Shown: positions 7,849 to 57,080 of the stretch, piece after piece
Position numbering within the stretch: the stretch's first letter is position 1
Layout: every line of letters starts with the position of its first letter
Origin: Alphaproteobacteria bacterium
GTDB lineage: Bacteria; Pseudomonadota; Alphaproteobacteria; JABAAW01
Direction: 5' to 3'
DNA: 64,000 bases
NCBI GenBank assembly: GCA_965216605.1
Contig: CBDCGG010000002.1
Location: 519,871-583,870, forward strand
The notes under the pieces: generated by a model
What the model was told of the DNA's origin: nothing
Databases searched by the model: none
What the model saw: the letters and a program-made list of their open reading frames with translations, nothing else
Made by a program: the position numbers and the translations under genes

Positions 7849-7978
7849 CGCAAGTGTTTTTTGCGGGGGATTACTCCCTCGCGCTCCCCGCGTGCTACGC
7901 GCGCGATGTTTTGCATCCGTAAAAACTACGCGCACTCGTAAAGGTTATCCACGCCCGTAAAAACTACGCGCGCCCGTT

Positions 7979-22236: not shown

Positions 22237-23907
22237 CTAGGGTTTGCATAACATGAGTCCATAGAAGGGTTTTAGTTTCTCTGCTTTTTCAGGACATTGG
22301 GAGAGGGTAGGCAAGCGCACGCCACTCAAACCGCTGTCGTAATAATTGAAAAAGATCGGTATCGCCCAGTCTACTAGGCTCGTATCAGGCACGACAAACC
22401 ACCCCCCATGCTTCTCCGCCTGTCGCACATCGTATGAGCGCAAGAATGCATACTTGCCATCCTTTCTCATCCTTTGGACGGAGATATAAAGCAGGCAGGC
22501 AACAACAATAAACACGACGATTCTTTGAACGCGCGAAAAAGGAGGTTGCTTCTCGTCGGGCGCGAGCAGGAAAACAAGAAAGAGCACAGGTAGCCACCAG
22601 TTCTGCGGCGCATGGCGAAAAGAAAAACCCACATTGAACGAAAGTATCGAGACGGCGACCCCTGCCAAGACGAGCAACCCTCCTCGGTGTCGCACAAAAA
22701 ACACCAGTGTCAAACACAGAAGCAAGGCGCCGCTAAACAAAGAAGAAAAACCATGCAGAAACGATTGCAAGTTCAGAGAAGAAAACGGCGGTAAAGGAAC
22801 GGGAGTCCAATTGGAAGTTTCTGCCGTTTTTGAAAACAGCGCAATCCACCATTTCTCGTACTGCGACTTTCCTGAAAAGACGGGGCTTGATTCCTCCAAA
22901 AAAACTATCTCTTGTTTCTCTTCGCCGAACACGATAGCGGGATAAAAAGGATGGACAGGGTTTCCATGCAGGTAAGCGTTTGTCGAGTAAGGGAAGAAGC
23001 CGAATAAGACGACCCCCAAAATCGTAGCCGCACTCCCCAGCCCCGCCAGTTGCAAAAGCGTCTTTCGGCTTGCGCCTCGCCGTGCGCCGTAGGCAAGAGC
23101 CGTCATCCCCAAAACACCCCCAAAAACAAGCCCTGTGAACTTGATGTTGACAAGCAGCACGAGAAGACACGCGACATAAACAGCTGTCCTTAGTCGTATC
23201 GTTCGGCTTTGTGCTTTGCCCTCCGAGACAAAACAAAGCATGAGCAAGAAAGCGCTCAGCAGCGTCGAGACAAGCAAGCCGTCGTTGAGGTGGGAGAAAA
23301 AACACATGGCAACAATGGGGTTTGCCGCAAGCAGAGCAGCCAAAACATTGCGCCAAGAACGAGACAAGCGCGGCAGGGTTTCGAAGAAACGTCTTGCGCA
23401 CAGAAACGCTGCCAGAGCGGATAGAACCGAAAAGGCAAAGCTCGCCTCGAATGTTTGCGTCCATACAATCAGCGAGGCAGAAAGCAGCCAGTGCGCTGCG
23501 GGGTAAACATGAGTGACCCAACTGCTGGGTTGCCAGTAAGGATTGACATCCTCCAACAAATCAAGAATTGCTTGAGCATGGTAGCCGCGAGAATCCCATT
23601 CTCTGTCCAAGGTGAAACTCAAAGCCCATGCCGCGAGCGCAAAGACTGCCAAAAGCAGCAACAAGGTTGCAGCCAATCTCTGCCATTTTTCTTCTCGATG
23701 CAGTGCGACGACCGCTCCTCCCCACAGCAACAGCCCTGTCGGAAAGACCCAACGACCCCTCTCTATATCGATGCCTATATCGGCAAGCAGAGCAAATGCC
23801 GCCGTCATGTACAGAACGGGCAGAAACAACACCGCTGCTGTCAGCAACAGCTCTTCCACGAAAAAACTCCGTATTTTTCTGACCTGCTCGGCTTTCAGTT
23901 TTTTCAT
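22237..23907 (-). CDS. Paralog 1 of a 5-member tandem family of ~560-aa polytopic membrane proteins (putative GT-C-type glycosyl/arabinosyltransferase; function inferred from context only)
   Basis: It has about 13-14 predicted TM helices and a C-terminal soluble domain ending 'GGWFVVPD...NYYDSGLSGVRLPTLSQCPEKAEK'. Its start codon overlaps the stop of paralog 2 (TCAT). Family motifs are 'SFFVEELLL..VLFLP.LYMTAAFALL.DIGID.ERGRWVFPTGLLLWG', 'HWLLSASL.VWT' and 'NIKFTGLVFGG.LG.TALAYGARRGASRKT'. Confidence 0.75.
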   Translation of the reverse strand: MKKLKAEQVRKIRSFFVEELLLTAAVLFLPVLYMTAAFALLADIGIDIERGRWVFPTGLLLWGGAVVALHREEKWQRLAATLLLLLAVFALAAWALSFTLDREWDSRGYHAQAILDLLEDVNPYWQPSSWVTHVYPAAHWLLSASLIVWTQTFEASFAFSVLSALAAFLCARRFFETLPRLSRSWRNVLAALLAANPIVAMCFFSHLNDGLLVSTLLSAFLLMLCFVSEGKAQSRTIRLRTAVYVACLLVLLVNIKFTGLVFGGVLGMTALAYGARRGASRKTLLQLAGLGSAATILGVVLFGFFPYSTNAYLHGNPVHPFYPAIVFGEEKQEIVFLEESSPVFSGKSQYEKWWIALFSKTAETSNWTPVPLPPFSSLNLQSFLHGFSSLFSGALLLCLTLVFFVRHRGGLLVLAGVAVSILSFNVGFSFRHAPQNWWLPVLFLVFLLAPDEKQPPFSRVQRIVVFIVVACLLYISVQRMRKDGKYAFLRSYDVRQAEKHGGWFVVPDTSLVDWAIPIFFNYYDSGLSGVRLPTLSQCPEKAEKLKPFYGLMLCKP

Positions 23908-25586
23908 TGAGGTTTGCACAATGTCAGTCCACTGTAGAGTTCGCGCTTCGGAGCATTGTACGGACATTGGGACATCGTAGGCAAGCGCACGCCGCTCAAA
24001 CCGCTATCGTAGTAATTGAAAAAGATCGGTATATGCCAATCTACCAGCATATTTGTGTCGGGAACGACAAACCACCCTCCCTCTTGTTCCGCTTGTTGCA
24101 CAACCTGTGCAAGCCATAGTGCCTCCCTGTGACGGAACCTCAGCCTTTGGACGGAGAGATAAAGCAGGCAGGCAACAACAACGAACACCACGATTCTTTG
24201 GGCTCTTTGTGCGCGCAAAAAAGAAGATTGCTTCTCGTCGGGCGCGAGCAGAAAGACAAGCAAGAGCACAGGCAACCACCAGTTCTGCGGCGTGAGGCGA
24301 AACGCGAAGCTCACACGCGTCGAGATAACGGATACCATAACCCCTGCCAAGACGAACCACGCTCCTCGGTGTCGCACAAAAAACACCAGCGTCAGACACA
24401 GAAGTAGCGAGCCGCTAAACAAAGTGCCGAAGCCGCCATAAAAAGCCTCGTATTGACGCAAAGAAAACGGCGGCAAAGGAGCAGGAGTCCAATAATCTTT
24501 CCCTCTTTCCGAGAACAGCGAAATCCACCATTTCTCGTACGAAGACTTGGCGTAGAATTCTTTGTCAAAAAGCCTGCCGACGATGTCCTTTGTTTTATCT
24601 TTCTCGGCAAAGGAGATCGCAGGGTAGAAGGGGTTTTTATGCAGCGCCATGTTCGTCGCGTAAGGGAAGAAGCCAAATAGGGCGACCCCCAAGATCGCCG
24701 CACCGCTGCCAAGCCCCGCAAGATGTACAAGCGTCTTTCTACTTGCTCCGCGTCGCGCGCCGTAAGCCAGTGCCGTCAGCCCCAGTATGCCGCCGTAGAC
24801 GAGCCCCGTGAACTTGATGTTGACGAGGAAGATTAATAAAGACGCAATACAAAAGGCGGCTCGAAAGCGTATCGTTCGACTTTGTGCTTTACCCTCAGAG
24901 ACAAAGCACAACATGAGCATGGATACACTCAATAACGTCGAGACAAGCAAGCCATCGTTATAGTGGACGAAGAAACACCATGTTGCGACGGGGTTGGCAG
25001 CGAGCAGGAATGCCAAAACATTGCGCCAAACACCAGACAAGTGCGATAGGGTTGGCGTTGCCAAAAAACGCCTTGCGCACAGAAACGCCGCCACGACAGC
25101 AACGCCTGTCAAGGCAAAGCTTGCCTCGAAACTTTGCGTCCATACAATCAGCGAGGCAGAAAGTAGCCAATGCGCTGTGGGATAAGTGTAGGTGATCCAG
25201 CTTCTAGGCTCCCAGTAGGGATTGACTCCCTCCAACAAGCCAAGAATTGCAAGAGCATGGTAGAAGCGTGAGTCTTGTCCCCTATCCAAATAAAGACTCG
25301 TCGCCCACGCCGTGAGCGCGAATACCGCCAAGAACAACAGCAGCGTTGCCACCAACTTCTGCCACTTTTCTTCTCGATGCAGTGCCACGATCGCTATGCC
25401 CCACAGCAACAGCCCTGTCGGAAAGACCCAACGACCCCTCTCCATATCGATGCCTATATCGGCAAGCAGAGCAAATGCCGCCGTCATGTACAAGATCGGC
25501 AGAAACAACACCGCTGCTGTCAGCAACAGCTCTTCCACGAAAAAACTCCGTATTCTTCTGACCTGCTCGACCTTCAGTTTTTTCAT
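23904..25586 (-). CDS. Paralog 2 of the tandem polytopic membrane-protein family
   Basis: It has the same architecture. Its N-terminal ~60 aa are nearly identical to paralog 1 ('MKKLK.EQVRRIRSFFVEELLLTAAVLFLP'). Its stop overlaps the paralog 1 start, and its start overlaps the paralog 3 stop. Confidence 0.75.
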   Translation of the reverse strand: MKKLKVEQVRRIRSFFVEELLLTAAVLFLPILYMTAAFALLADIGIDMERGRWVFPTGLLLWGIAIVALHREEKWQKLVATLLLFLAVFALTAWATSLYLDRGQDSRFYHALAILGLLEGVNPYWEPRSWITYTYPTAHWLLSASLIVWTQSFEASFALTGVAVVAAFLCARRFLATPTLSHLSGVWRNVLAFLLAANPVATWCFFVHYNDGLLVSTLLSVSMLMLCFVSEGKAQSRTIRFRAAFCIASLLIFLVNIKFTGLVYGGILGLTALAYGARRGASRKTLVHLAGLGSGAAILGVALFGFFPYATNMALHKNPFYPAISFAEKDKTKDIVGRLFDKEFYAKSSYEKWWISLFSERGKDYWTPAPLPPFSLRQYEAFYGGFGTLFSGSLLLCLTLVFFVRHRGAWFVLAGVMVSVISTRVSFAFRLTPQNWWLPVLLLVFLLAPDEKQSSFLRAQRAQRIVVFVVVACLLYLSVQRLRFRHREALWLAQVVQQAEQEGGWFVVPDTNMLVDWHIPIFFNYYDSGLSGVRLPTMSQCPYNAPKRELYSGLTLCKPQ

Positions 25587-27292
25587 TGAGGTTTGCACAA
25601 TGCCAGCCCATCGAGGGGTCTCATTTTCTCTGCTTTGTCTGGGCATTGAAGCATCGTGGGCAAGCGCACGCCGCTCAAACCGCTGTTGTAGTAACGGAAA
25701 AAGGCTTCTGTGTGGTGTTTCATCTGCAGATCGGGCACGACAAACCACCCTCCTTGCCGCTCCGCCTGTCGCACAACTTGCGACAAGGCGACTGCCAGAT
25801 TGCCATGATACATCAGCCTTGCGACGGAGATATAAAGCATGCAGGCAACAACGACAAACACGATAGCTCTTTGCGCACGCGACAAAGAGCGCGACAAAGG
25901 AGATGACTTCTCGTCAGGCGCGAGCAGAAAGACGAGAAAGAGCATCGGCAGCCACCAGTTCTGTGGCGCGTGGCGAGAAGAAAGACCCACCCCGAACGAA
26001 AGAATCGAGACGCCAACCCCTGCCAAAACAAGCAACCCTCCTCGATGACGCACAAAAAACACCAGCGTCAGACACAGAAGTAGCGAGCCGCTAAACAAAG
26101 AGCCGAACCCGTCCAAAAAAGATATAGGGCTCAGCGAAGAAAACGGCGGCAAAGGAGCAGGAACTCTCCAATCTCCTTGCGTTTGTGAAAACAGCCCAAT
26201 CCACCATTCCTCGTATTGCAACCTTTCTAAAAAAACGGGGTTTGCTTCCTCCAAAAAAGCTATCTCTTGTTTCCCTTCGCCGAACACGATAGCAGGATAA
26301 AAAGGATGGACAGGGTTTCCATGCAGGTAAGCGTTCGTCGAGTAAGGGAAGAAGCCGAACAGAGCGACCCCCAAGAGAGCCGCACCACTGCCCAGTCCTG
26401 CAAGGCGGACAAGCGTCTTTCGGCTTGCGCCGCGCCTGACCCCGTAAGCCAGCGCCGTCAGTCCCAAAGCACCCCCGAAGACGAGCCCCGTGAACTTGAT
26501 ATTGATGAGAAATACAAGAAGACACACGATACAAAAGGCTGTCCGTCGCAAGCGTCGTTTGTTTTCCCTTTGAGAGCCTTCTTCGCAGACAAAGCAGAGC
26601 ATCAGCATAAAAACGCTCAAAAGCACGGATACCAAAAAGCCGTCGTTGTAGTTCATAAAAAAACAAGAGAACGCGATGGGGTTGCCAGCAAGTAACGCGG
26701 CGAGAAGATTGCGCTTCGAACGAGATGAAGCACGAGACAAGTGTGGCAGCGTTGCCAAGAAACGCCTTGCGCACAGAAACGCCGCCACGACAGCAATGAC
26801 GGTGAAGACAACGCTAGTCGTAAGGAGTTGTGTCCACACAACAAGCGAGGCAGAAAGCAGCCAGTGCGCTGTGGGATAAGTGTAGGTGATCCAGCTTCTA
26901 GGCTCCCAGTAGGGATTTCTTCCCTCCAACAAGCCAAGGATTGCACGAGCATGGTAGTGGCGAGAATCCCATTCAATATCCGCGAGGAAACTCGCCGCCC
27001 ACACCGCGAGCGCGAATATTGCCAAAACCAGCAATAGGGTTGCGAGCCGTCTCTGCCATTTTTCCTCTCGATGCAGTGCCGCGACCGCTATACCCCACAG
27101 CAGTAGCCCTGTCGGAAAAACCCAACGACCCCTCTCCATATCGATGCCGATGTCCGCAAGCAGAGCAAACGCCGCCGTCATGTACACAATGGGCAGAAAC
27201 AACACCGCCGCTGTCAGCAACAGCTCTTCCACGAAAAAACTCCGTATTCTTCTGACCTGCTCGGCTTTCAGTTTTTTTACTAGGGTTTGCAC
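25583..27292 (-). CDS. Paralog 3 of the tandem polytopic membrane-protein family
   Basis: It has the same architecture. The canonical ATG of paralogs 1 and 2 is replaced by GTA (Val), so a GTG 4 codons upstream is used as the start. Confidence 0.7.
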   Translation of the reverse strand: MQTLVKKLKAEQVRRIRSFFVEELLLTAAVLFLPIVYMTAAFALLADIGIDMERGRWVFPTGLLLWGIAVAALHREEKWQRRLATLLLVLAIFALAVWAASFLADIEWDSRHYHARAILGLLEGRNPYWEPRSWITYTYPTAHWLLSASLVVWTQLLTTSVVFTVIAVVAAFLCARRFLATLPHLSRASSRSKRNLLAALLAGNPIAFSCFFMNYNDGFLVSVLLSVFMLMLCFVCEEGSQRENKRRLRRTAFCIVCLLVFLINIKFTGLVFGGALGLTALAYGVRRGASRKTLVRLAGLGSGAALLGVALFGFFPYSTNAYLHGNPVHPFYPAIVFGEGKQEIAFLEEANPVFLERLQYEEWWIGLFSQTQGDWRVPAPLPPFSSLSPISFLDGFGSLFSGSLLLCLTLVFFVRHRGGLLVLAGVGVSILSFGVGLSSRHAPQNWWLPMLFLVFLLAPDEKSSPLSRSLSRAQRAIVFVVVACMLYISVARLMYHGNLAVALSQVVRQAERQGGWFVVPDLQMKHHTEAFFRYYNSGLSGVRLPTMLQCPDKAEKMRPLDGLALCKPQ

Positions 27293-28956
27293 AATGCCAG
27301 CCCATGGATGGGTATCATTTTCTCTGCCTTTTCAGGGCATTGGGAGAGGGTAGGCAAGCGCACGCCACTAAAGCCGCTGTCGTAGTAACGGAAAAAGGCT
27401 AAAGCCTTCCGTTTCATCAGCAGATCGGGGACAAGGAACCATCCTCCCTGCTGTTCCGCTTGTTTCACAACCCGCATTGTCTTGATTGCTGCCACGCCAT
27501 AAAAATTTGCGCTTTGGAAAGAGTCGTAGCACAAGCAAGCGACAACAGCGAACACCGCGATTCTTTGGGCTCTTTGCGCGCGCGACAAAAGATTTTTCTT
27601 CTCGTCGGGCGCGAGCAAGAAAACAAGAAAAAGTATAGGCATCCACCAGTTTTGCGGCGTGAGGCGGAAATGGAAACTGGCAGATGTCGAGAGAATGGAT
27701 ACCATGATACCTGCCAAAACGAACCACGCTCCTCTGTGTCGCACAAAAAACACCAAGCTCATACACAGAAGCCACGAGCCACCAAAAAGAGGTCCTAGGC
27801 TTGAGATGAAGGATGTGGGACGCAAAGAAGAAAAAGGCGGTAGAGGAGCGAGACGCCACTCGCCGTTCACCGGTTTGGAGAACAGCGAAAGCCACCATTT
27901 CTCGTAATGCGACCTTTTATAAAATTCTGGGGACACAAGGGGACGGGTTATGTCGCTTGTTTTCTTTCCCTTGTCAAAGAAGATTGCGGGGTAGAAGGGA
28001 TTTTTATGTAGCGCAGTGTTCGTCGCGTAAGGGTAGAAGCCGAATAGGGCGACCCCCAAAATAGCAGCCGCACTCCCCAACCCCGCCAGTCGCAAGAGCG
28101 TTGCGCGGCTTGCGCCACGCCGTGCGCCGTAAGCCAGCGCTGTCAGCCCTAAGATGCCGCCGAAGACGAGCCCCGTGAACTTGATATTGACGAGCAACAC
28201 GAGAAGACACACGATATAAACGGCGGCTCGAAGCTGTGTCGTTCGACTTTGCCTCTTGCCTTCCGAGACAAAGCAAAGCATGAGCAAGAAAACACTCAAC
28301 AGCGTCGAGACAAAAAAGCCATCGACACTGTGGACGAAGTAGCACCATATTGCGATGGGGTTGGCAGCGAGCAGGAACGCCAAAACATGACGCCAGAAAC
28401 GGGACAAGTGCTGTAGCGTTGCCAAATAACGCCTTGCGCACAGGAAGGCTGTCAGAACGGACAGAGCCGTGAAAGCAAAGCTCGCGGTGAAAAGTTTTGT
28501 CCATACAATCAGCGAGGAAGAAAGCAGCCAGTGAGCAGCGGGGTAGGTGTAGTAGACATAACGCGTGCCCCAAGTGTTGGGATGACGATAGGGATTTCCT
28601 CCATCCAACAACGCCAAAATAGATTGTGCATGGTAGGTGCGACCATCCCACCCTCTGTCCAAAAAGAAACTCGTAGCCCACGCCGCGAGCGCAAAGCCTG
28701 CCAATAACAGCAACAGCGTTGCCGCTTGTTTGTGCCACCTTTCCTCTCGATGCAGTGCCGCGACCGCAACTCCCCACAGCAGCAACCCCGTAGGAAAAAC
28801 CCAACGACCCCTCTCCATATCGATGCCTATGTCGGAAAGCAGAGCAAATGCCGCCGTCATGTACAAGACAGGCAGAAACAACACCGATGCCGAAAGCAAC
28901 AGCTCTTCCGAGAAAAAACGCCTTGCTCTTCCGATGGAAGCACCTATGGCTTGCAT
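27280..28956 (-). CDS. Paralog 4 of the tandem polytopic membrane-protein family
   Basis: It has the same architecture. A ~230-nt stretch of its 5' end (about 28680-28915) is near-identical to paralog 5 (about 30355-30595). It overlaps both neighbours by 13 nt. Confidence 0.75.
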   Translation of the reverse strand: MQAIGASIGRARRFFSEELLLSASVLFLPVLYMTAAFALLSDIGIDMERGRWVFPTGLLLWGVAVAALHREERWHKQAATLLLLLAGFALAAWATSFFLDRGWDGRTYHAQSILALLDGGNPYRHPNTWGTRYVYYTYPAAHWLLSSSLIVWTKLFTASFAFTALSVLTAFLCARRYLATLQHLSRFWRHVLAFLLAANPIAIWCYFVHSVDGFFVSTLLSVFLLMLCFVSEGKRQSRTTQLRAAVYIVCLLVLLVNIKFTGLVFGGILGLTALAYGARRGASRATLLRLAGLGSAAAILGVALFGFYPYATNTALHKNPFYPAIFFDKGKKTSDITRPLVSPEFYKRSHYEKWWLSLFSKPVNGEWRLAPLPPFSSLRPTSFISSLGPLFGGSWLLCMSLVFFVRHRGAWFVLAGIMVSILSTSASFHFRLTPQNWWMPILFLVFLLAPDEKKNLLSRAQRAQRIAVFAVVACLCYDSFQSANFYGVAAIKTMRVVKQAEQQGGWFLVPDLLMKRKALAFFRYYDSGFSGVRLPTLSQCPEKAEKMIPIHGLALCKP

Positions 28957-30701
28957 AGCACCAACCCATAGACGAGTCTGCGTGTCTCTGCTTTTTCAGG
29001 ACATTGGGGCATAGTAGGCAAGCGCACGCCACTCAAGCCGCTGTCGTAGTAATCGAAAAAGATTTGACTTTCGCTATTTTTAATCTGCGGATCAGGAACA
29101 ATGAACCACCCTCCCTGCCGCTCCACCTTTCGCACAACCCGCGCCGTCTCGATCGATGCCCCACCATAAAATTTGACGCTTTGGATTGAGGCATATAACA
29201 AGCAGGCGACAACGACTAAGATCACGATTCTTTGGGCTCTTTGCGCGCGCGACAAAAGGTTTTTCTTCTCGTCGGGCGCGAGCAGAAAGACGAGAAATAG
29301 CACAGGCAACCACCAGTTCTGCGGCGCGTGGCGAAAAGAAAAACCCACCTCGAACAAAAATATTGAGGCGGCAACCCCTGCCAAAACGAGCCAAGCTCCT
29401 CGGTGTCGCACAAAAAACACCAAGGTCAGACATAAAAGCAAGGCGCCGCTAAACAAAGAGCCGAACCCATAAAGAAAATCTCCGGGTCTAAGTGAAGAAA
29501 AAGGCGGCAAAGGAACGGGATCCCAACCACTTGCTGACCCACTTTTGGAAAACAATGAAATCCACCATTTTTCGTACTGCGATCTTCCTGAAAAGACAGG
29601 GCTTGAATCCTCCCAAAAAACTATCTCTTGTTTCTCTTCGCCGTACACGATAGCAGGATAGAAAGGATGGACAGGGTTGCCATGCAGGTAGGCGTTCGTC
29701 GCGTACGGGTAGAAGCCAAACAGCGCGACCCCCAAGATCGTAGCCGCACTGCCCAGCCCTGCAAGTTGTACAAGCGTCTTTCGACTTGCGCCGCGTCGTG
29801 CGCCGTAAGCAAGCGCTGTCAGCCCTAAGATGCCGCCGAAGACGAGCCCCGTGAACTTGATATTGATGAGAAACACGAGAAGACACGCGATACAAAAGGC
29901 GGCTCTAAGCCGTGTTGTTCGACTTTGCCTCTTGCCTTCCGAGACAAAGCACAACATGAGCAAGAAGACACTCAGTAGCGTGGATACAAGCAAACCATCG
30001 GTATGGTTGGTAAAGAAGCACCATGTTGCGATGGGGTTGGCAGCGAGCAGGAACGCCAAAACATTACGCCAGAAACGAGACAAGTGCTGTAGCGTTGCCA
30101 AATAACGCCTTGCGCAGAAAAACGCCGACAGAGTGGCTACGACCGTAAAGACAAAGCTTACCTCAAACATGTGCGTCCATACGATCAACGAGGCAGAAAG
30201 CAACCAGTGAGCCACAGGGTAGGTCAAAATGACCCACAACTTGAGCCAACTGTTAGGGTGCCGGTAGGGATTGACTCCCTCCAACAAGTCAAGGATTGCC
30301 TGAGAATGGTAGTCGCGAGAATCGTAGTTGTTGTCCAAAAGGAAACTCGTAGCCCACGCCGCGAGCGCAAAGCCTGCCAATAACAGCAACAGCGTTGCCG
30401 CTTGTTTGTGCCACCTTTCCTCTCGATGCAGTGCCACGACCGCAACTCCCCACAGCAGCAACCCCGTAGGAAAAACCCAACGACCCCTCTCCATATCGAT
30501 GCCTATGTCGGAAAGCAGAGCAAATGCCGCCGTCATGTACAAGACAGGCAGAAACAACACCGATGCCGAAAGCAACAGCTCTTCCGAGAAAAATCGCTCG
30601 CCACAAGACGACACGCTCCCTTCCCACGCCTTGACACGGCGTTGTAAAGACGACGAAAGGCGACAGCACGCATCGGCGATTGTTGGCAAAAGATGTTTCA
30701 T
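28944..30701 (-). CDS. Paralog 5 (first in transcription order) of the tandem polytopic membrane-protein family
   Basis: It has the same architecture and a longer N-terminal extension. It starts 48 nt from tRNA-Ser on the opposite strand. Confidence 0.75.
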   Translation of the reverse strand: MKHLLPTIADACCRLSSSLQRRVKAWEGSVSSCGERFFSEELLLSASVLFLPVLYMTAAFALLSDIGIDMERGRWVFPTGLLLWGVAVVALHREERWHKQAATLLLLLAGFALAAWATSFLLDNNYDSRDYHSQAILDLLEGVNPYRHPNSWLKLWVILTYPVAHWLLSASLIVWTHMFEVSFVFTVVATLSAFFCARRYLATLQHLSRFWRNVLAFLLAANPIATWCFFTNHTDGLLVSTLLSVFLLMLCFVSEGKRQSRTTRLRAAFCIACLLVFLINIKFTGLVFGGILGLTALAYGARRGASRKTLVQLAGLGSAATILGVALFGFYPYATNAYLHGNPVHPFYPAIVYGEEKQEIVFWEDSSPVFSGRSQYEKWWISLFSKSGSASGWDPVPLPPFSSLRPGDFLYGFGSLFSGALLLCLTLVFFVRHRGAWLVLAGVAASIFLFEVGFSFRHAPQNWWLPVLFLVFLLAPDEKKNLLSRAQRAQRIVILVVVACLLYASIQSVKFYGGASIETARVVRKVERQGGWFIVPDPQIKNSESQIFFDYYDSGLSGVRLPTMPQCPEKAETRRLVYGLVLCKP

Positions 30702-33036: not shown

Positions 33037-33053
33037 AACTTCCTCGCCATCTT

Positions 33054-33155
33054 GGGGATAAATTCCCCTTGGGGATAGATTCCCCTTGGGGATAAATTCC
33101 CCTTGGGGATAAATTCCCCTTGGGGATAGATTCCCCTTGGGGATAAGTTCTCTTT
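33054..33155. repeat. Six tandem copies of a 17-bp unit TTGGGGATA(A/G)ATTCCCC in the dprE1 / UbiA-like divergent intergenic region
   Basis: GGGGATA recurs at 33054, 33071, 33088, 33105, 33122 and 33139 with an exact 17-bp period. Each unit contains the palindrome CCCCTTGGGG and the hairpin GGGGATAAATTCCCC. Confidence 0.85.
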
Positions 33156-33226: not shown

Positions 33227-34144
33227 GTGGAGGATGGAGAAAACGCGATGCCAACAACTTTAAAACCGCTGCAAGACAAAAAGACGCGATCCTTATCGCT
33301 CTCTGTGCTTGCGCTGTTGCGCCCTTTGGAATGGAGCAAAGGCGTTTTTGTACTTTTTCCTGCCTTGTTTTATGATATCTCGCTCGTTGTGTGGAAGCCT
33401 GCCTTGTGGGGAGCGGTGCTTGCAAGCTTTGTGCTGTTTTGCCTTGCTGCCTCCGGCGTCTATGTCTTCAACGATCTGTTGGATATTGAACAAGATCGCA
33501 AGCATCCGATCAAGAAACATACGCGACCTCTCGCTTCAGGAGAGATCTCGAAGTCTTGGGCGTGGGGCATTTTTGTTGCGCTGTCGTCTGCCTGCTTTCT
33601 GTTGTCGGCAGCATTTGTGCCTGCGGTGTTTCCCTTTCTTCTCATCTATTGGCTTTTGATGCTTGCGTACAGCGCGAAGTTGAAGCATTGGGCGATCATC
33701 GATCTTTTTGTAATCGCGTTCGGCTTCTGCCTTCGCGTCGAGGCGGGTGCGGCGGCACTCGACGCTCCTGTTTCGCTGTGGATGCTGGCGACGACCTTGT
33801 GTCTTGCGTTGTTCCTTGCTGCCTCCAAGCGAAGGCAAGAGACACTTGCCAACAAGGCGCGCGCGCGGCGGGTGTTGAGCGTCTATTCCGTTCCTTTGAT
33901 CGAACGTTATATGATGATCGCGGCGGTTTGCACGCTGATGTTTTACAGCTTTTTTGCAACCGACATTCGTCCGAAGCTGGGTTATACGATTCCCTTCGTG
34001 CTGTTCGGCTTCTTCCGCTACTTGCTGCTGATCGAGCGTAGCTCTGACAAGGATTCTCCTACTGATCTGTTGTTTTCGGACAAATCTCTTTTGGCGTGCG
34101 TCGTCGTATGGGCGATGTTGTCGATGGTGTTGTTGTGGCACTAG
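33227..34144 (+). CDS. UbiA-family decaprenyl-phosphate 5-phosphoribosyltransferase (Rv3806c/DPPR synthase-like)
   Basis: The 305-aa protein has 'FCLAASGVYVFNDLLDIEQDRKHPIKKHTRPLASG', paralleling Rv3806c 'FSLAASAVYLVNDVRDVEADREHPTKRFRPIAAG'. Further similarity occurs at 'LKHWAIIDLFVI' and 'SKRRQETL'. It is divergent from dprE1-dprE2. Confidence 0.85.
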   Translation: MEDGENAMPTTLKPLQDKKTRSLSLSVLALLRPLEWSKGVFVLFPALFYDISLVVWKPALWGAVLASFVLFCLAASGVYVFNDLLDIEQDRKHPIKKHTRPLASGEISKSWAWGIFVALSSACFLLSAAFVPAVFPFLLIYWLLMLAYSAKLKHWAIIDLFVIAFGFCLRVEAGAAALDAPVSLWMLATTLCLALFLAASKRRQETLANKARARRVLSVYSVPLIERYMMIAAVCTLMFYSFFATDIRPKLGYTIPFVLFGFFRYLLLIERSSDKDSPTDLLFSDKSLLACVVVWAMLSMVLLWH

Positions 34145-34785
34145 AGGAGGGCTGTGAAGCTGTCGCTGCAGAAGTTGCCGAAGAAGTTGCTGTAGCTTTG
34201 GACGAGATTAAAGGCGGCAGGATGATCGTCGTCTCCGACGATGCGCACAGGGAGAACGAGGGCGACTTGATTATGGCAGCGCAATACGCGACCGAGCAAC
34301 AACTCGCCTTTTTCGTGCGTTACACCAGCGGCATCGTCGCCGTGGCGATCTCTGCTGCGCGAGCCGCCTTGTTGCGCTGTCCGCCGATGGTACCTCTCAA
34401 CGAGGCGCCCTTAGCGACAGCCTTCACCGTCTCGCTCGACGGGCGCGAGGGACTGACGACAGGCATTTCTGCCGAAGAGCGTGCAAGAACGATTCGCACG
34501 CTCGCCTGCCCTAGTGCGAAGGCGGAAGATTTCGTCCGCCCAGGGCATGTCTTCCCTCTCATTGCGAAGGAGGGGGGCGTGATCGAGCGCGCGGGACACA
34601 CCGAAGCGGCTTACGACTTGGCGCGACTGGCGGGGGCAGAGCCCGTGGGCGTGCTTGCCGAGATCGTCTGCGACGACGGCAGCGTCGCCAAGGGGCAGGT
34701 GTTGGTAGACTTTGCCCTTGCGCATGGGTTAAAAAAACTTTCGATCGAAAATCTCATTCGCTGGCGGAGGCTCAATCAACGATGA
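34096..34785 (+). CDS. ribB: 3,4-dihydroxy-2-butanone-4-phosphate synthase RibB
   Basis: Motifs '[21 protein letters not shown]', 'RPGHVFPL' and '[14 protein letters not shown]' match RibB. The start is uncertain: the track ORF overlaps the upstream gene by 49 nt, and the true start is probably 34108 or later. Confidence 0.8.
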
Positions 34786-35849
34786 CGCACCCCTTAAAAT
34801 TTCTCATCCTCGCTACAACCCTTCTGTTCCTCTCATCGCCATTTCTAAACGCTAAAGCCAAATCCAAATCCGCACCCCTCAAAATCGTCTCAACCGCAGC
34901 CCCTATACACGCGCTGCTCGTACATCTGACGCACGGCGCACAAAAGCCGCATCTGCTCCTGCCGCCAACCATCATGCCGCACGGCGCAAGACTCACGCCG
35001 TCGCAAGCACGCATTCTGCACAACGCCAACCTGCTCGTGCTTATCGGAGAATCCTTCGCCGCGCTCGAAAGCAACATCAAGCCAAGCGCAACCCGCCACA
35101 TCGTCCGCCTCACAAAGCTGAAAGGAATCACAATCCTGCCCATCGTACCAAAACATGACGAAGAAGAGCATGGTGAAGAGGAGCACGAAGCAGAGGAGCA
35201 TGGAGAAGAGGAGCATGGAGAAGAGGAGCACGGAGCAGAGGAGCACGGAGCAGAGGAGCACGGAGCAGAGGAGCACGAGGCAGAAGAACATGAAGCAGGA
35301 GAGCATCTTCATGAGGGCAGCGTCGATCCGCATGTGTGGCTCGATGTGGAGAACGCTCGTGTGATCGTCAAGCGTCTTGCCGAGATTTTGGCAAAACGCG
35401 ACCCCTCCAACGCCGCGCTGTATCGCAAGAACGCACGCTTGCAAGAGCTCTCTCTGCGTGCGCTCGATCAAGAGGTGCGCGCGCTCGTGCGCGGGATTTC
35501 GACAAGTTCTGTTGCGGCAAAATTTCTCGTGCTTCACGATTCCACCGCCTACTTTACAGCGCGCTATGGCATTCGCGGCAAAGAGCGTCTCTACGCTGCG
35601 CGTCACAACGCCACGCGCGATGGTCTGCGACATACTTTGAATGTGCGCAAAAAGCTGCGTAGCGGAGACTATCGTTGTGTCATCGTGCAACCACAACTGC
35701 CGCGCGAGGTGCGTACACGGCTTTTAGGCTCTGATACGCGGGTTGTTGTCATCGATCCCTTGGGGGCAAAGTTGCCGCAGGACAAGAATTTTTACGCTAG
35801 CTTGTTGATGTCTGTTGCCGAGGGCTTCCGGGAATGCCTTGCTGGCTAG
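34782..35849 (+). CDS. znuA: Zinc ABC transporter substrate-binding protein ZnuA with an unusually long acidic/His-rich loop
   Basis: It has a signal peptide and the cluster A-I SBP fold. The loop 'HDEEEHGEEEHEAEEHGEEEHGEEEHGAEEHGAEEHGAEEHEAEEHEAGEH' is encoded by tandem 18-nt repeats. znuC and znuB follow. Confidence 0.8.
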   Translation: MTHPLKFLILATTLLFLSSPFLNAKAKSKSAPLKIVSTAAPIHALLVHLTHGAQKPHLLLPPTIMPHGARLTPSQARILHNANLLVLIGESFAALESNIKPSATRHIVRLTKLKGITILPIVPKHDEEEHGEEEHEAEEHGEEEHGEEEHGAEEHGAEEHGAEEHEAEEHEAGEHLHEGSVDPHVWLDVENARVIVKRLAEILAKRDPSNAALYRKNARLQELSLRALDQEVRALVRGISTSSVAAKFLVLHDSTAYFTARYGIRGKERLYAARHNATRDGLRHTLNVRKKLRSGDYRCVIVQPQLPREVRTRLLGSDTRVVVIDPLGAKLPQDKNFYASLLMSVAEGFRECLAG

Positions 35850-42315: not shown

Positions 42316-42385
42316 TGCTATATTAGATTCTTGACTTGGATTCTTGGCTTGGATTCTTGGCTTGAATTTCTTGGCTTGAATTTTT
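42316..42385. repeat. Five tandem copies of a 13-14-bp unit (GATTCTTGGCTTG) upstream of a small ORF
   Basis: The directly readable sequence is gattcttgacttg gattcttggcttg gattcttggcttg aatttcttggcttg aatttttggcatc. Confidence 0.7.
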
Positions 42386-42458
42386 GGCATCATCCGTGTT
42401 ATACACGCGCGAGCGGCAAACGGGGATGCCTTTTATGCTTTTTTGGGAGAGTTCGTTC

Positions 42459-42842
42459 ATGACAAAAATTTTGTTTTCTTTTCTGCTTTGTTTTTTTAGC
42501 CTTGTGCTGCTGTCGACGGATGCCTCTGCGCATCATGTCTATGGCATCGAGGTCTCGCCTACCTTAGAGCTTGTTCATGGCTTGGCAGAACCTTTCCTCT
42601 TCGCCTTGAGCGGAGCATGCCTTGCCGCTTTCCTATCGCGGCGCGCACCCCTCAAACTGCTTCTCGCGTTGCTCGTCTTCAGCTTTGTCTTCGGCTTTGT
42701 TGGACTCGCCTTGGCGATCGCCTCTGTGATCGAGGAAGGGGTAGGCTTGTTCCTGCTGTGGGACGCGCTGGCAGGCGCGGGGTTTTTCGCGCTCGTGGGA
42801 CGCAGACGAGTGGGCGTGAAGCGTAACGCCAAGATTTTTTAA
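42459..42842 (+). CDS. Hypothetical small membrane protein with signal peptide
   Basis: 'MTKILFSFLLCFFSLVLLSTDASAHH' is followed by 2-3 TM helices. A GGGAGA RBS is present. It is flanked on both sides by tandem repeat arrays. Confidence 0.4.
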   Translation: MTKILFSFLLCFFSLVLLSTDASAHHVYGIEVSPTLELVHGLAEPFLFALSGACLAAFLSRRAPLKLLLALLVFSFVFGFVGLALAIASVIEEGVGLFLLWDALAGAGFFALVGRRRVGVKRNAKIF

Positions 42843-42905
42843 TCAAGATTTTTTGACCAAAATTTTTTGACCAAGATTTTTTGACCAAGCTTTTTTGACA
42901 AGGAG
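42843..42905. repeat. Four tandem copies of a 14-bp unit (A)AGATTTTTTGACC directly upstream of ppa
   Basis: The sequence is tcaagattttttgacc aaaattttttgacc aagattttttgacc aagcttttttgaca aggag. Each unit carries a TTGAC (-35-like) hexamer core. The array ends at the ppa RBS. Confidence 0.7.
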
Positions 42906-42915
42906 TTTCTGACGC

Positions 42916-47142: not shown

Positions 47143-47832
47143 ATGTCTCAAGAATCGTTCGGTTTTACCTCGCTATTGTTGTCTGCGCACTGGGTCGTGC
47201 AGCTTGTTCTCGCTTTGCTGGCGTTTGCTTCGGTTTTGAGCTGGGCAATCGCGCTGAAAAAGTACGCCGAGATGAAAACGACCGTTTTTCTGAATCACCG
47301 CTTTTGGCTGCGCTTTCATCACGAGAGCTCGATTCTGAAACTCTCGCAAGAGCTGCGCGAGGGCGATCGTTGTCCCTTGGTGCGCCTGTTTCTTTCGGCG
47401 ATGGAGGAATGGAAGATGTCTACCAAACACCGCCACGCGCAAAGGCAAACTTTGGAAGAGCGTATCGCGCGTATCTTGAGTTTACGCCTGCTGGAGGAAA
47501 ACGCACGAAGCGAACGTCTTTTGCCGCTCCTCGCTACGATAGGCTCGACTGCACCCTTCGTGGGGCTATTCGGCACGGTGTGGGGCATTATGAACAGCTT
47601 CCGCTCGATCGCGGCGACCCAACAATCTAGCCTCGCCGTCGTCGCGCCGGGCATCGCCGAGGCACTTTTTGCAACCGCGCTTGGGTTGCTCGCCGCCATT
47701 CCGGCGACGATCTTCTACAACCTGCTGCTGGTGCGCGCCAATCGTATTCACTTGGATTTGGAAGCCTTCGTCGAGCAACTGACGATAAAATTCTCGCGGC
47801 AGTTCGACGATATGGCAACTGCTAATCGTTAA
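47143..47832 (+). CDS. tolQ: Tol-Pal system protein TolQ
   Basis: It is a MotA/TolQ/ExbB 3-TM protein with 'LATIGSTAPFVGLFGTVWGIMNSF'. Confidence 0.85.
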   Translation: MSQESFGFTSLLLSAHWVVQLVLALLAFASVLSWAIALKKYAEMKTTVFLNHRFWLRFHHESSILKLSQELREGDRCPLVRLFLSAMEEWKMSTKHRHAQRQTLEERIARILSLRLLEENARSERLLPLLATIGSTAPFVGLFGTVWGIMNSFRSIAATQQSSLAVVAPGIAEALFATALGLLAAIPATIFYNLLLVRANRIHLDLEAFVEQLTIKFSRQFDDMATANR

Positions 47833-47867: not shown

Positions 47868-48296
47868 ATGCCTGCCCCTCTTCCCTCCGTTCGTGCGCTT
47901 CGCTTTCGTCAGAGGACGCTGATCGATGCCATCAATGTCACCCCCTTCATCGATGTGATGCTGGTACTGCTCGTCATCTTTATGGTCACCGCACCCCTGT
48001 TGAGCGTCGGGTTGGAGGTCGAACTGCCGCAGAGCGACGCGAAACCCCTGCAAGCGAAAGAACAACCCCTCGTCGTCTCGATTCGCAAGGACGGCTCCGT
48101 CTTTCTGCAAGAAACGCGCGTGACAGAAAAAACGCTCGTCAAACACTTGACGGCACTCGCGGCGGGCAACAGCAATATCGCCATCTACATCCGCGGCGAC
48201 CGCAGGCTGCGCTACGCACAAGTCTTGCGGGTGATGGGACGCGTCAATCGCGCAGGATTCGAGCGCGTCTCGCTCGTCACCGACCAACTGCGATAA
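47868..48296 (+). CDS. tolR: Tol-Pal system protein TolR (ExbD family)
   Basis: It has a single TM 'INVTPFIDVMLVLLVIFMV' plus a periplasmic domain. Confidence 0.8.
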   Translation: MPAPLPSVRALRFRQRTLIDAINVTPFIDVMLVLLVIFMVTAPLLSVGLEVELPQSDAKPLQAKEQPLVVSIRKDGSVFLQETRVTEKTLVKHLTALAAGNSNIAIYIRGDRRLRYAQVLRVMGRVNRAGFERVSLVTDQLR

Positions 48297-48321: not shown

Positions 48322-49189
48322 TTGTCGTTTTCTCTTGCCATGAAAGGCTTCCTGCTACGCCCCTTCGACGAGCGTAGCATGTCGGAAACGCTAGCTTTCT
48401 CCGCGCTCGTGCACGCCATGCTGTTCTTTTCTGGCACGCTGCTCGCATGGCTTTTGCCGCGCTATATCGAGCCCTTCCCCTCGACGCGCGTCGAGATCAT
48501 CTCGGAAGCAGAACTGCAACAACGGCTAAAAACCTACCGCACCGAAGCGAAAACAACCCCTCGTGAAACTCTGCCGCAAGAGCAACCCGCAACCGAGCAA
48601 CCCACGACTGAACAGCAAAAAGCAGAGCAGCCCACGGCTAAACAGCCCACGGAACAGAGCGCGGCTGTTAAAAAGCCTCCTAAGGAGCGGGTTGGCGAAG
48701 CAACAACGCAAGAAAAGCCTAAAGATACGATCGATGGTCTGCTCACGGCTTTGGAGGAGACTTCGAACGAGGAAGCAAGTTTGGAGGAATCGTTGGGAAT
48801 CGTTGGACGCAGCACTGGCAGAATCGGAGATCGAGACATCTTTTCTGACCTCCGAGTCCGTCGAGTCCGTTCTAACGCAACGCGAGCTTGCCACCTTCCG
48901 CCGTCATATCACGCAATGCTGGAGTCCGCCTGTCGGCGCGCCTGCGTTGGAGAATCTTGTTGTGGATCTGCTGCTAACTATCGACGGCAATGCCTATGTC
49001 GTGGATGCGCTGGTGATGGATCGAGCGCGCATGACGAGCGATCCTTTTTTCCGTAGCGCGGCAGAGGCAGCTCTACGCACGCTTTCGGACGCAGCCTGCT
49101 CGCCGTTGCGCTTACCTTTGGAAAAACATGCCTTGTGGAAAAAAACGGTTCTGCGCTTTGACCCGCGCAGTCTGTTCGGAGGAAACTAG
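48322..49189 (+). pseudogene. tolA: tolA interrupted by a +1 frameshift caused by a 10-bp tandem duplication (GAATCGTTGG x2 at 48787-48806)
   Basis: The N-terminal TM plus Q/E/K/P-rich domain II reads in frame 1 (48322...), and the conserved C-terminal domain ('ATFRRHITQCWSPPVG...') reads in frame 2 to the stop at 49189. Deleting one copy of the duplicated decamer restores one continuous ORF ('...EASLEESLDAALAESEIETSF...'). Confidence 0.6.
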
Positions 49190-49196
49190 AGGAGGC

Positions 49197-50528
49197 ATGG
49201 CACGTCTTGTCTTCCTGTTGTTCGCAAACCTGCTGTGGCTGGGTATTGTTTCGAATCCTGCCTCGGCGCAGTTGCGCATCGACATTCAGGACGGGATTTT
49301 CCGTCCGATAAAACTTGCGATCACCGACATCGTGCGCGAGCGTGCGGGACGCAAGACGGCGAGTGTTGTGCGTAGCGTTTTAGAATCGGATCTGACGCGC
49401 GCGGGCTTGATCGAGATTGTCGAGCGCGATGCGCTCATTCAAACAGCCCTTGCTTTGAGCGAGACGCCTCCTTTTGCTGTCTTTCGTATTGCGGGTGCGG
49501 ACGCGCTCGCCACGATTTCGCTCAACAAGAGGGGCAGGGTTCTGACGGCTACCTTGCAGATTTGGGATGTCAACCTGGAGCGTCCGCTTGCACGCGAGAC
49601 GCTGAGCGCGCGTTCTGAGCGTGTGCTTGCGCATAAAATTGCGGATGCCATTTACAGCCGTCTGACTGGAGAGAAGGGATATTTCAACAGCCGTATTTTG
49701 TATGTCTCGGAGATCGTGCGCAAGAAGCGGCGTTGGAAGAGGCTGGAGGTCATGGATGCGGACGGCGCGAACGTACGCTATCTAACACGCGGACGGCGTA
49801 CTTTGGTGTTGAACCCCCGTTTTTCGCCTGACGGCAGCAAGGCGATTTATACGGCACTCACGCACAAGAGGAGTTCGATCCGTCTGATCGATCTGACGCG
49901 CAAGAGCCGCGAGCAGATTCTGCCTTTGGGGAAGGGACTTGTTTATGCGGCGCGTTTTGCGCCTAACAACCGCGGCATTGTTTATGCGCAGTCTTTGTCG
50001 GGCAACAGCGAGATCTTCACTTACGACCTTAGGACGCAGCGTCGTCGTCGTCTGACGGTGCATCCTTCGATCGACACTTCTCCTAGTTTTTCGCCGGACG
50101 GGGGTTATGTTGCTTTTGTTTCGGATCGCAGCGGCTCGCCGCAGATTTATGTGATGACGCGGCGCGGCACGCATGTTCAACGAGTGAGTTTTGACAAGGG
50201 ATCGTTTTCCACGCCGATATGGTCGCCGCGCGGCGATCGGATTGCTTTCACGCGGCAGCTTTACGGCAGGTTTGGGGTGGGTGTGATGCGTACGGACGGC
50301 AGTGATTTGCGTATTCTTGCTGAGGGATTTCGGGTGGAGGGACCCAGTTGGTCGCCGAACGGCAGGGTATTAGTTTTCTTTAACAAGCAGCGGACGCCTA
50401 AGGGGGCACGTGCGGGGCGGTCTCGATTGATGACGGTGGATGTAACAGGGCGGTTTTTACGGGAATTGCCGACGAGGCATAACGCTTATGACCCTAGTTG
50501 GTCGCACGCGCGCGAGGAGACGGAGTGA
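49197..50528 (+). CDS. tolB: Tol-Pal system beta-propeller protein TolB
   Basis: It has a signal peptide, an N-terminal domain and a WD-like propeller with repeated 'SP.FSPDG' and 'P.WSP.G' motifs. A GGAGG RBS is present. The start is at the internal Met 49197, just after the tolA stop. Confidence 0.9.
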   Translation: MARLVFLLFANLLWLGIVSNPASAQLRIDIQDGIFRPIKLAITDIVRERAGRKTASVVRSVLESDLTRAGLIEIVERDALIQTALALSETPPFAVFRIAGADALATISLNKRGRVLTATLQIWDVNLERPLARETLSARSERVLAHKIADAIYSRLTGEKGYFNSRILYVSEIVRKKRRWKRLEVMDADGANVRYLTRGRRTLVLNPRFSPDGSKAIYTALTHKRSSIRLIDLTRKSREQILPLGKGLVYAARFAPNNRGIVYAQSLSGNSEIFTYDLRTQRRRRLTVHPSIDTSPSFSPDGGYVAFVSDRSGSPQIYVMTRRGTHVQRVSFDKGSFSTPIWSPRGDRIAFTRQLYGRFGVGVMRTDGSDLRILAEGFRVEGPSWSPNGRVLVFFNKQRTPKGARAGRSRLMTVDVTGRFLRELPTRHNAYDPSWSHAREETE

Positions 50529-50639
50529 TTTTTACGGGCGCAAAACATCGTGCTCACGCGAAAGATACGGGCTTTGTTCAATTGGGGAATGCACGCAAGA
50601 CGAGCGAGCCTTAAAATTATTTTTGGGCGAAGTGAGTTT

Positions 50640-50775
50640 TGCGCACAGGGGGCGTGGGGAGTTTCCAACCCCCCGCAAAAGACCCCGCGTCAGCGGGGCG
50701 CGTAAGCGCGCTTTTCTAGCGCGTAGCCTCTTATTCAAAAGCGCGAGGGGGGATAAATTCCCCTCGCAGAAACGC
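50640..50775. repeat. Copy C of the ~140-bp dispersed intergenic repeat family
   Basis: It lies between tolB and a convergent downstream gene, where pal would be expected. It shares AAAGACCCCGCGTCAGCG / GCGCGTAAGCGCGC / TAGCCTCTTATTCAAAAGCGC and a GAGGGGGGATAAATTCCCCTCGC hairpin. Confidence 0.8.
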
Positions 50776-50905
50776 GCAAGCTGACTCGTAACGCGGTAGA
50801 GCGTCTTTAATTTTGCCTAGAAGATAGAGAGGAAAAGAATCGCATGTAGCGCGTCTCTTGCCATGCCGCGTTAGATAGAGGGTGTGGAGTGAAAACTGCC
50901 CTAGC

Positions 50906-51301
50906 CTACCCTGCGCCCTGCCCCAACAACAAAGTGGCAAGCCCAATCATTGTCGCCATGAGTGTCGCCATCACAGAAAACCCTATAACCATCATTTGTC
51001 GCAAACCCCTCATCTGCTCCTGCATCGCCTGATTCTCCGCCCTCAATGCCTGATTCTCCGCCTTTGTCTCTGTCCTCAACGCCCGAATCTCCGCCTTCAC
51101 CTCTTTAATGTCCGCCTTCAGCTCTATCTTTACCGCCTGAGTCTCCGCCTTCGTCGCAACAGCTCGCATAATCTCGCGCAAAACATCGCAAAGCGCACGA
51201 GCTTGCCCCTCGTCCCATCCCCCTTCTCGCAATCGGTCGACAACCCTTTGCGTGTCAAAATTCACCGTTCCATTCGACACTCTTTCCGTTTCCTCCAACA
51301 T
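50906..51301 (-). CDS. Coiled-coil protein with C-terminal TM anchor (DUF1640-like)
   Basis: It has heptad-like 'KIELKADIKEVKAEIRALRTETKAENQALRAENQAMQEQMRGLRQM' followed by the hydrophobic 'VIGFSVMATLMATMIGLATLLL'. Confidence 0.4.
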   Translation of the reverse strand: MLEETERVSNGTVNFDTQRVVDRLREGGWDEGQARALCDVLREIMRAVATKAETQAVKIELKADIKEVKAEIRALRTETKAENQALRAENQAMQEQMRGLRQMMVIGFSVMATLMATMIGLATLLLGQGAG

Positions 51302-51609
51302 AACGACAATCGCCCTTTTCCAAAGCCCCTAAAACAAATCTCCTGATTCGAACGATACCTACTACCCGTCCGAAAGTCAAGCCCGCACAGACGCACTTGT
51401 GCGTAGAAGGCGCACCAAATATCATGGACGCACACGGCAAGCCGTGCGCTATGGCACCTCGCTGACGCGGGATCTTTTGCGAGGGATTACTCCCGCGCGC
51501 TCCCGCGCACGCTTCGCGTGCGCATGTTTTGCGCCCGTCATCATACAAAGCAAGCCTGTTGCGCGAGCGCATGCCTTCAAAACAAACAAAAGAACCGGCG
51601 CGTAGCACA

Positions 51610-55261: not shown

Positions 55262-57080
55262 TTGGAGGAACACACCATGCAAAAGGATGAAAGGAGTTTG
55301 CGATGGCGATGGCTATGGCGATGGCGATTCAAATGGCGATGCCCGAAAAAATTGTCACGCTACCTGTGCCTAACCTTGTGGTTGGGTTATGGAATCTTGG
55401 GAACCCTAACTTGCACGCCGGCAAAGGCGCAGCAACCCGTTGATAGCGATAGCGCAGAGGAGACAGAAAAACGCTTTCGCTGGACAACTACGGGCAAGGT
55501 CTACCTACGCTACGGCGGCATTCGACCTCCGCAACCGACCAATCTGTTCGGCTTTAAACACGATGACGAAAGTGAGAATTATTTGCTAACGGAAGATGAA
55601 CGCAGAAGTTTTTTTCAATCTTACAACGCGCCTTCGTTAGAGACTGGCGATATTGGCTTGGATCTCTACGAGCTGCTTTTGGGGTTTGAGGCAAGCTCTG
55701 CCAAGGACAAGAAGTGGCAGGGCAAGGCACACGCGACGCTGGATGTTTTTGAACTGGGCGCGCGGCTTTCCGGCAACGACTGGGGTGGCAGGCTTGTTCA
55801 AGCCGACGACTTCGATTCGGTCGGTGTGCGCGAAGCCTTTCTCTCGCTCTCTCGTAAGAAGGTGGGCGAGTTGCGCCTCGGTATCACGGAGGGGGTGGTG
55901 CGAAGGTTGGACGCGGGCGCGAGCGAAATCAATGCGGGCAACGGATTCTTCGGCGATGTTTCACGAACGCCATGGCATATCCAACAGCTGGGTTGGCAGC
56001 TGGGAAGCACCGCGAGCGATAACTTCCCTAAAGTTCAATACCTTACCCCCAAGTTTGGCGGCGTATCCATCGGCGCAGAGTGGTTTTCCAACCTGCGCAC
56101 GCCCGACAACAACCTCAAGTCCTTCTCCCGCGACAGCTCCTCCTTCTGCTTTCCATCCCTCTTCTACGCCAAAGACAAAAAACTCTTTGAACCCAACTAT
56201 CCTTCCCAATTCACCCTGTACGACAATACACAAGCACAGTTTGGTCATGATGGTGATGGTGGATGTTAATTACTATCTACAGACGAATCTCCAGCCTGAT
56301 CTATCGCGTGATTCTAAGCTTGACCCTGGTTGCTGGCAAATCTCGCCTAGCGGCTCTTCTTGGCACGAAGACGCGCGCCCTTCGGTCATGGGCGGCAATG
56401 TCGCCATTGCCTACGAAAAGGATTTCCCTAAAAAAAAGCTGTCGCTGAAACTCGCCGCGCGCTACGGCATCCGTTCTTCCGAAGCCGAGGCTGTAGAATC
56501 CAACGATATTCTAAAAAGACTCTTTGTTTTTGAGAGTAAGGGTATGCATGAGAAAGCATCGCTAGATATTAACCACAAGGCAAGCCTGCTGGAACAGGCT
56601 GTGGGCTTCAGCACGGGGTTGGTTTGGCGCGGTTATAGCTTTTTCGGCGGCGTCACCTATCAATTTCCTAGCTCCATCCGCTTAGAAGAGGCGGGGGGAG
56701 AAACCCTTTCGGAAAAAGGTGCCGAGGCTCTTTTGTGGTCTGTCGGCATCAAGGCGGCGCAATTGATTCCGCACAAAAAAGGCGACGATGGTAAGCGTAA
56801 GAAAAAAGGAACGCTTTCGGTATCCTTCACGCAAGCCCTGACAAAAGACCCGCGCTACAAGGAAGGCGAGCAAGAGACAACCTTTTTACTCAATGTGCAA
56901 AGCCTCTACCCCATCACAAAAAACATCGTCGTCACCACCGACTACTGGTACGGCGAGGCAGCCGTTTCCGTGCCTTTCTTCGTAACTACAAAGATTTATC
57001 CCAGCCAAGGCGTTCTTTTCTTTGAACGAAGGCTTGTGCCAAGCCACGAGGTCGTCGTCGGCTTGAAGATGGTGTTCTGA
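55262..57080 (+). pseudogene. Outer-membrane beta-barrel porin-like gene split by an apparent +1 frameshift near 56255-56268
   Basis: Frame A (55262-56269) carries the signal peptide and the first half, ending 'FGHDGDGGC*'. Frame B continues 'VDVNYYLQTNL...' to the C-terminal '...VGLKMVF' (terminal Phe, typical of OMPs). Removing one G in the GGTGG run restores 'HDGDGDVNYY'. Confidence 0.5.

Follow-up and report, generated by a model that had tools for sequence, protein, structure and literature searches.

The tol cluster and the identity of its interrupted gene

The 64-kb window (the whole stretch of alphaproteobacterial DNA analysed here, 64,000 nucleotides) contains a tolQ-tolR-tolA-tolB cluster on its forward strand, in a gene order identical to that of the closest relative. 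Its tolQ (47143-47832; Pfam MotA_ExbB, 8.4e-36; TIGR02796 tolQ, 8.9e-65), tolR (47868-48296; Pfam ExbD, 4.8e-31; TIGR02801 tolR, 132.8 bits, above its cutoff) and tolB (49197-50528; TIGR02800 TolB, 8.1e-104, above its cutoff) are intact, and these Pfam and NCBIfam matches put the gene between tolR and tolB in the position of tolA. This gene, also on the forward strand, is split between two frames: a 5′ part in frame A (48340-48796), encoding an anchor (domain I, with S21...H25) and a charged, disordered linker (domain II), and a 3′ part stranded in frame B (48803-49189), assigned to the end of the linker and domain III from a structural model, Foldseek matches and omega values. The tolB gene has a Shine-Dalgarno sequence of its own, GGAGG, which overlaps the tolA stop codon just 5′ of the ATG at 49197.

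No pal gene was found 3′ of tolB in this clade, as inspected in the window and in the closest relative. The place after tolB is occupied by a conserved CCDC90-like (PF07798) coiled-coil membrane protein, encoded on the opposite strand (50906-51301), and past it lies repeat-rich non-coding DNA (region 50529-51605 of the window, 8192-9836 of the related locus L001). In L001 the DNA after tolB is about 500 bp longer and contains a roughly 150-bp element three times; fragments of this element occur in the window at 7859-7920 and 50667-50709.

Restored to a single frame, as described below, tolA encodes a protein of 279 aa, which general family models recognize poorly: no Pfam family, TonB_C included, matches it at E ≤ 0.01, and TIGR02794 (tolA_full) aligns to residues 17-126 only, with 34.2 bits, short of its cutoff of 59.45. 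Because the query was the repaired protein, these sub-cutoff scores are due to how far the clade as a whole has diverged and not to the frameshift. A database search gave 25 relatives, 24 of them full-length or near-full-length. Across 25 aligned sequences S21 and H25 of the anchor are nearly invariant (of the classical SHLS motif, the S...H portion alone can be recognized), and the homologues also show strong conservation over the C-terminal 100 residues. Compared with the PDB, a profile of the family matches the TonB anchor region of 9ddo (E = 1.4e-4) and, marginally, the domain III entries 6s3w and 1lr0 (E about 1.2-1.5).

An alignment-based AlphaFold2 model predicts the anchor helix at residues 14-38 (pLDDT about 90) and a confidently folded region at residues about 170-279 (pLDDT 80-95); the linker, at residues about 70-168, is enriched in E/K/Q/P/T, with pLDDT below 50 and a length that differs from one homologue to the next. 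Foldseek searches of the PDB ranked TolA domain III structures first (1lr0, 6s3w, 2x9a, 3qdp, 4g7x, 3qdr, 1tol and 1s62), with probabilities of up to 1.0 (0.95-1.0 for the first five), target-normalised TM scores of about 0.6 and RMSD of about 3.5 Å over about 97 columns; TonB C-terminal domains scored below these. An earlier note, made from the sequence alone, had described the C-terminus as TonB_C-like, which is loosely right, but the Pfam TonB_C family does not match it and the predicted fold is closest to TolA domain III.

Gene order, the S...H pair of the anchor and the predicted domain III fold together identify the gene between tolR and tolB as what is, on the structural model, a divergent yet real TolA with the three-domain architecture described for that protein (PMC7391070). 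With the TolA proteins of Escherichia coli and Pseudomonas aeruginosa (1lr0, 6s3w, 1tol, 3qdp) it shares the position between tolR and tolB, a single N-terminal transmembrane helix, the Ser...His pair, a long charged linker and, by prediction, a C-terminal alpha/beta domain of about 100 aa. It differs from them in being very divergent in sequence, in having no pal after tolB and in being frameshifted, and its linker is short compared with that of the E. coli protein (279 aa in total, as against 421 aa).

A derived duplication and two reading frames

The decamer GAATCGTTGG occurs twice in tandem on the forward strand, at 48787-48796 and 48797-48806, within a perfect period-10 run of 21 nt (48786-48806). 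It is found nowhere else in the window, and the 20-mer, with up to two mismatches allowed, is expected 0.00 times (100 dinucleotide shuffles). The second copy shifts the frame by +1. From the ATG at 48340, frame A encodes the anchor and the Q/E/K/P/T-rich linker as far as ‘...EESL’, then 86 out-of-frame, non-homologous residues (48797-49056), and ends at the stop codon 49054-49056; frame B has no stop between 48563 and the TAG at 49187-49189 and from 48803 encodes ‘LDAALAESE...ATFRRHITQCWSPPVG...’. Homology to intact relatives passes from frame A (‘...EESL’) to frame B (‘DAALAE...’) inside the repeat, and a codon-usage scan finds the 3′ end of the frame-A ORF out of coding phase, the coding frame there being +1. 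Deletion of either copy in silico yields the 279-aa ORF, with ‘EESLDAALAE’ at the junction in place of ‘EESLGIVGRSTG’. The duplication falls where domain II ends, some 18 residues ahead of domain III. The earlier note had proposed that tolA is disrupted by a 10-bp tandem duplication, that the anchor and Q/E/K/P-rich domain read in one frame and the C-terminal domain in the +1 frame, that the switch coincides with the duplication, and that removing one copy leaves a clean ORF; each point is borne out. The same truncated TolA (238 aa, P0011) is annotated in the deposited genome, a public contig of 1,625,166 bp, and the window is therefore faithful to the deposited sequence.

Could the gene work despite the shift, through programmed +1 ribosomal frameshifting or in the form of two polypeptides, each functional by itself? 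Frames A and B are both open from 48563 to 49056, such that any shift in that interval would give a fused product, and a GGAGG lies upstream of the TTG at 48803. The chance that either arrangement operates is nevertheless close to nil: two-frame use is seen in no homologue or related locus, the two-frame layout is not conserved, and neither a stop codon nor a recognisable shift site lies close to the junction, frame A running on for 250 nt to its next stop. A separately made C-terminal domain, having neither signal nor anchor, would remain cytoplasmic.

Comparison with relatives indicates which state is ancestral. In the closest relative, a metagenome-assembled genome (MAG) with a 1.90 Mb chromosome (OZ244186.1), tolA is intact and encodes 281 aa (P0001; 90% identical protein); the tolA DNA of the two is 94% identical, and the 10 bp are an insertion in the window. 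The second copy is likewise absent from the two nearest species (L082 and L003), where the junction is single-copy and reads TTGGA(C/G)GAATCGTTGGACG. All 24 homologues are continuous through the junction, reading ‘ESLD(A/E)AL’, and tolA is one unbroken frame in six of six related loci; P0026 and P0027, which complete the closest protein cluster, are intact and come from the closest relative's species. Because the 94%-identical relative carries one copy, the second decamer copy is, as judged by sequence comparison, a derived, lineage-specific insertion. A short TolA call in the relative L005 (P0016) was considered as a recurrent break and rejected: the frame is continuous, and the call merely starts late. 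Searches of a contig index with the truncated TolA product and the exact TolR and TolB of the window returned no record, and none of the TolA peptide patterns, nor the junction DNA pattern in one, two or three copies, was found in JGI metagenome contigs; no other assembly of this lineage turned up.

As in slipped-strand frameshifts, the insert is identical to the adjacent sequence, is not a multiple of three in length and is absent from orthologues. With slipped-strand duplications such as those at the lacI CTGG hotspot it shares a perfect head-to-tail copy, a length not divisible by three, inactivation and, in principle, reversibility; unlike typical cases, the ends of the duplicated unit share a microhomology of 1 bp only, and there is no pre-existing repeat tract. 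Gene inactivation by replication slippage has been described in nascent symbionts, in work on Sodalis (PMC4948707), although that work concerns deletions between direct repeats and the tolA event is a duplication. This is most likely an ordinary slipped-strand frameshift, of a mutation class and in a gene family already well known.

A second perfect tandem duplication lies in the same gene 47 bp downstream of the first: CGAGTCCGT, 9 bp, is present twice at 48853-48870 on the forward strand. It is in-frame, inserting ‘SVE’ in the linker (‘SESV’ becomes ‘SESVESV’), and is likewise lineage-specific, being absent from all 24 homologues. In another relative, P0009, 12 bp are independently duplicated in-frame (‘LDDALDDA’), at the point of the TolA linker where the window has its decamer repeat. 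The linker evidently tolerates and accumulates short in-frame duplications at this spot, and the junction appears to favour or tolerate short duplications.

Sequence quality, a second broken gene and the age of the break

Perfect tandem duplications with units of 8-30 nt number 19 in the window, as against about one in shuffled sequence, and their density (0.27 per kb) compares with 0.13 per kb in 74 unrelated alphaproteobacterial tol loci. The idea of a genome-wide storm of tandem duplications was dropped: ordinary alphaproteobacterial loci have half the density of the window, an enrichment of about two-fold. Repeats whose units are multiples of three lie inside ORFs, and the others are intergenic or at gene edges, the pattern that would be expected from selection. 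A structural hotspot at the tolA junction was also rejected (DNA fold z = +0.46), as was a further frameshift at an 8-bp repeat at 27616, where the ORF is intact and conserved among five paralogues.

These paralogues, head to tail on the reverse strand at 22237-30701, are polytopic membrane proteins of about 560-615 aa, 64-74% identical to one another and all intact; the family is locally amplified, and its sole domain match is a weak one, to DUF2142. Elsewhere in the window a 15-bp in-frame tandem array of about 10 copies (35160-35306, forward strand) within the ORF at 34782-35849 encodes a His/Glu-rich loop, (E-E-H-G-x)n; from its sequence this ORF looks like a periplasmic metal-binding protein, the loop being probably copy-number-variable and metal-binding. 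Intergenic arrays include one with a 17-bp unit, CTTGGGGATAAATTCCC, at 33051-33150 (5.9 copies, 93% matches), 5′ of a gene starting at 33227, and two with units of 13-14 bp, GATTCTTGGCTTG at 42326-42388 (4.8 copies) and CCAAGATTTTTTGA at 42829-42913 (5-6 copies), placed on either side of a small gene that lies upstream of the one for inorganic pyrophosphatase. The last of these arrays exceeds its counterpart in the 94%-identical relative by 55 bp.

About 19 kb of the window was aligned to the relative, with every indel listed, and all 64 kb were scanned for codon-usage phase. Coding indels are multiples of three with two exceptions, the tolA decamer and a net change of +7 nt in a porin gene; the remaining indels that are not multiples of three are all intergenic. 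The phase scan flagged the N-terminal ORF of tolA alone among real genes, its other flag being a spurious antisense ORF. The assembly looks otherwise clean: two of about 60 genes in the window are broken, tolA and the porin, both of which encode envelope proteins.

The porin gene (55277-57080, forward strand) lies 6 kb downstream of tolA, and the two breaks are within 8 kb of each other. Its N-terminal half, which matches Pfam Porin_4, stops at 56267-56269; its C-terminal half runs in another frame from about 56262 and ends ‘...KMVF’. Its homologues are unbroken proteins of 588-686 aa; in the public genome the annotated product is a 330-aa fragment (P0039). The break, near 56262 and around ‘GATGGTGATGGTGGATGTTAA’, falls in a variable loop. 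Omega is 0.48 downstream of it and 0.23 upstream, in a protein class whose loops evolve fast. The porin break is separate from the tolA event.

Between the stranded, frame-B C-terminal domain of tolA and the relative there are 18 synonymous differences and one non-synonymous difference, distributed 2/0/17 over the three codon positions, giving an omega of 0.016 at dS = 0.28. The intact neighbours give 0.079 (tolQ), 0.076 (tolR) and 0.114 (tolB), and the stranded domain is thus at least as constrained as they are. One change over about 229 non-synonymous sites would leave room for a neutral period of roughly 0.02 substitutions per site at most, and at most about 7% of the pairwise divergence could have been neutral. 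Because omega in the stranded downstream frame is 0.016, the break is, by this estimate from sequence divergence, very recent; tolA was functional until very recently, or still is. Such youth is equally compatible with a mutation newly arisen in a small, host-associated population, with a minority haplotype and with a consensus error.

The last two possibilities, in which the true or dominant tolA is single-copy and the second copy arose by polishing error or strain collapse, make up the foremost alternative, although an unlikely one. A perfectly preserved downstream domain in an otherwise intact tol cluster is what an intact gene would show; the genome is evidently a metagenome-derived single contig, its relatives being all MAGs; and the porin frameshift falls in a hypervariable loop, a place where a mixture of strains could yield a chimeric consensus. 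Against this, only two of about 60 genes are broken and the other coding indels are multiples of three, while the perfect in-frame duplication of 9 bp, 47 bp away, indicates that such events happen here. The usual behaviour of platforms and assemblers also speaks against an artefact: typical sequencing errors are homopolymer or 1-2 bp indels, repeats so short are easily resolved by assemblers, and a perfect 10-bp tandem duplication would, to our knowledge, be atypical as an error on any current sequencing platform.

Another possibility is that the duplication is an adaptive, reversible ON/OFF switch of TolA, useful for escape from Tol-dependent phages or bacteriocins or for vesicle production, and reset by slippage. 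Short tandem duplications do revert, through RecA-independent slippage. Filamentous phages and group A colicins classically gain entry through TolA domain III and porins (PMC7391070), and here tolA and a porin are both broken within 8 kb; P0009, with its independent 12-bp in-frame duplication, shows a change at the same linker spot. Simple-sequence-repeat contingency loci likewise have a repeat in the coding region of an envelope gene, with copy number setting the frame. The tolA repeat differs from them in having only two copies of a long, 10-nt unit without a repeat tract; the relatives are all single-copy, leaving no conserved multi-copy structure; neither strain polymorphism nor any copy-number variant was found in public collections; the DNA structure at the junction is ordinary; and two broken envelope genes are a sample of two. 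We consider a switch quite improbable. Such phages and bacteriocins enter via a porin and TolA, and the joint loss of the two could therefore reflect selection by them; in its full form, with tolA and the porin both lost to that selection, the tolA lesion readily reversible, letting the population turn the system on again, and Tol-Pal dispensable in this lineage, the proposal is highly doubtful.

Probable consequences for TolA and for the organism

The reading that we favour, and hold to be probably correct, is a recent loss-of-function frameshift in tolA, caused by the tandem duplication. Replication slippage would have created the 10-bp duplication at the boundary of domains II and III, and the duplicated allele would be the majority state in the sampled population. 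Ribosomes starting at the ATG at 48340 would make the anchor and linker, continue through 86 out-of-frame codons and stop at 49056, and domain III would not be produced within an anchored periplasmic protein. This domain pairs with the TolB N-terminus through beta-strand augmentation, and the force from TolQ-TolR is applied there (PMC7391070). The allele would thus be a Tol-Pal null, and the system may be expected to be non-functional in cells that carry it. Internal starts in frame B, the ATG at 48734 and the TTG at 48803, would not rescue it, since their products have no hydrophobic signal or anchor segment (maximum Kyte-Doolittle value 0.62, as against 1.89 for the real anchor). Translation now ends 141 nt upstream of tolB, compared with 8 nt for intact tolA; because tolB retains its own GGAGG, it is probably still translated. 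As with any short tandem duplication, exact loss of one copy could revert the lesion.

Counting against a loss-of-function frameshift are the intact and constrained tolQ, tolR and tolB, and the lesion is so extremely young that an error or a transient deleterious variant would explain it equally well. The earlier note had spoken of an essential envelope system, which holds for Caulobacter crescentus, Sinorhizobium meliloti and P. aeruginosa, where Tol-Pal has been reported essential, but not for E. coli K-12 (PMC7391070, PMC7327166). Because the system is reported essential in the alphaproteobacteria tested, a fixed tolA null in a member of this class would be somewhat unexpected. A literature search found nothing relevant on tolA pseudogenes or on these MAG accessions.

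If the duplicated allele is a minority variant or an error, its interest lies in annotation: the public 238-aa ‘TolA’ would be restored by a one-copy correction. If it is real and dominant, this is an alphaproteobacterium living without a functional Tol-Pal system. The bacterium, which is uncultured, is probably host-associated, and a true loss of Tol-Pal would suggest that it lives in a protected, host-associated niche or has recently been under selection by phages or bacteriocins. Such a loss would also show gene decay at its very first step, with the stranded domain still undamaged.
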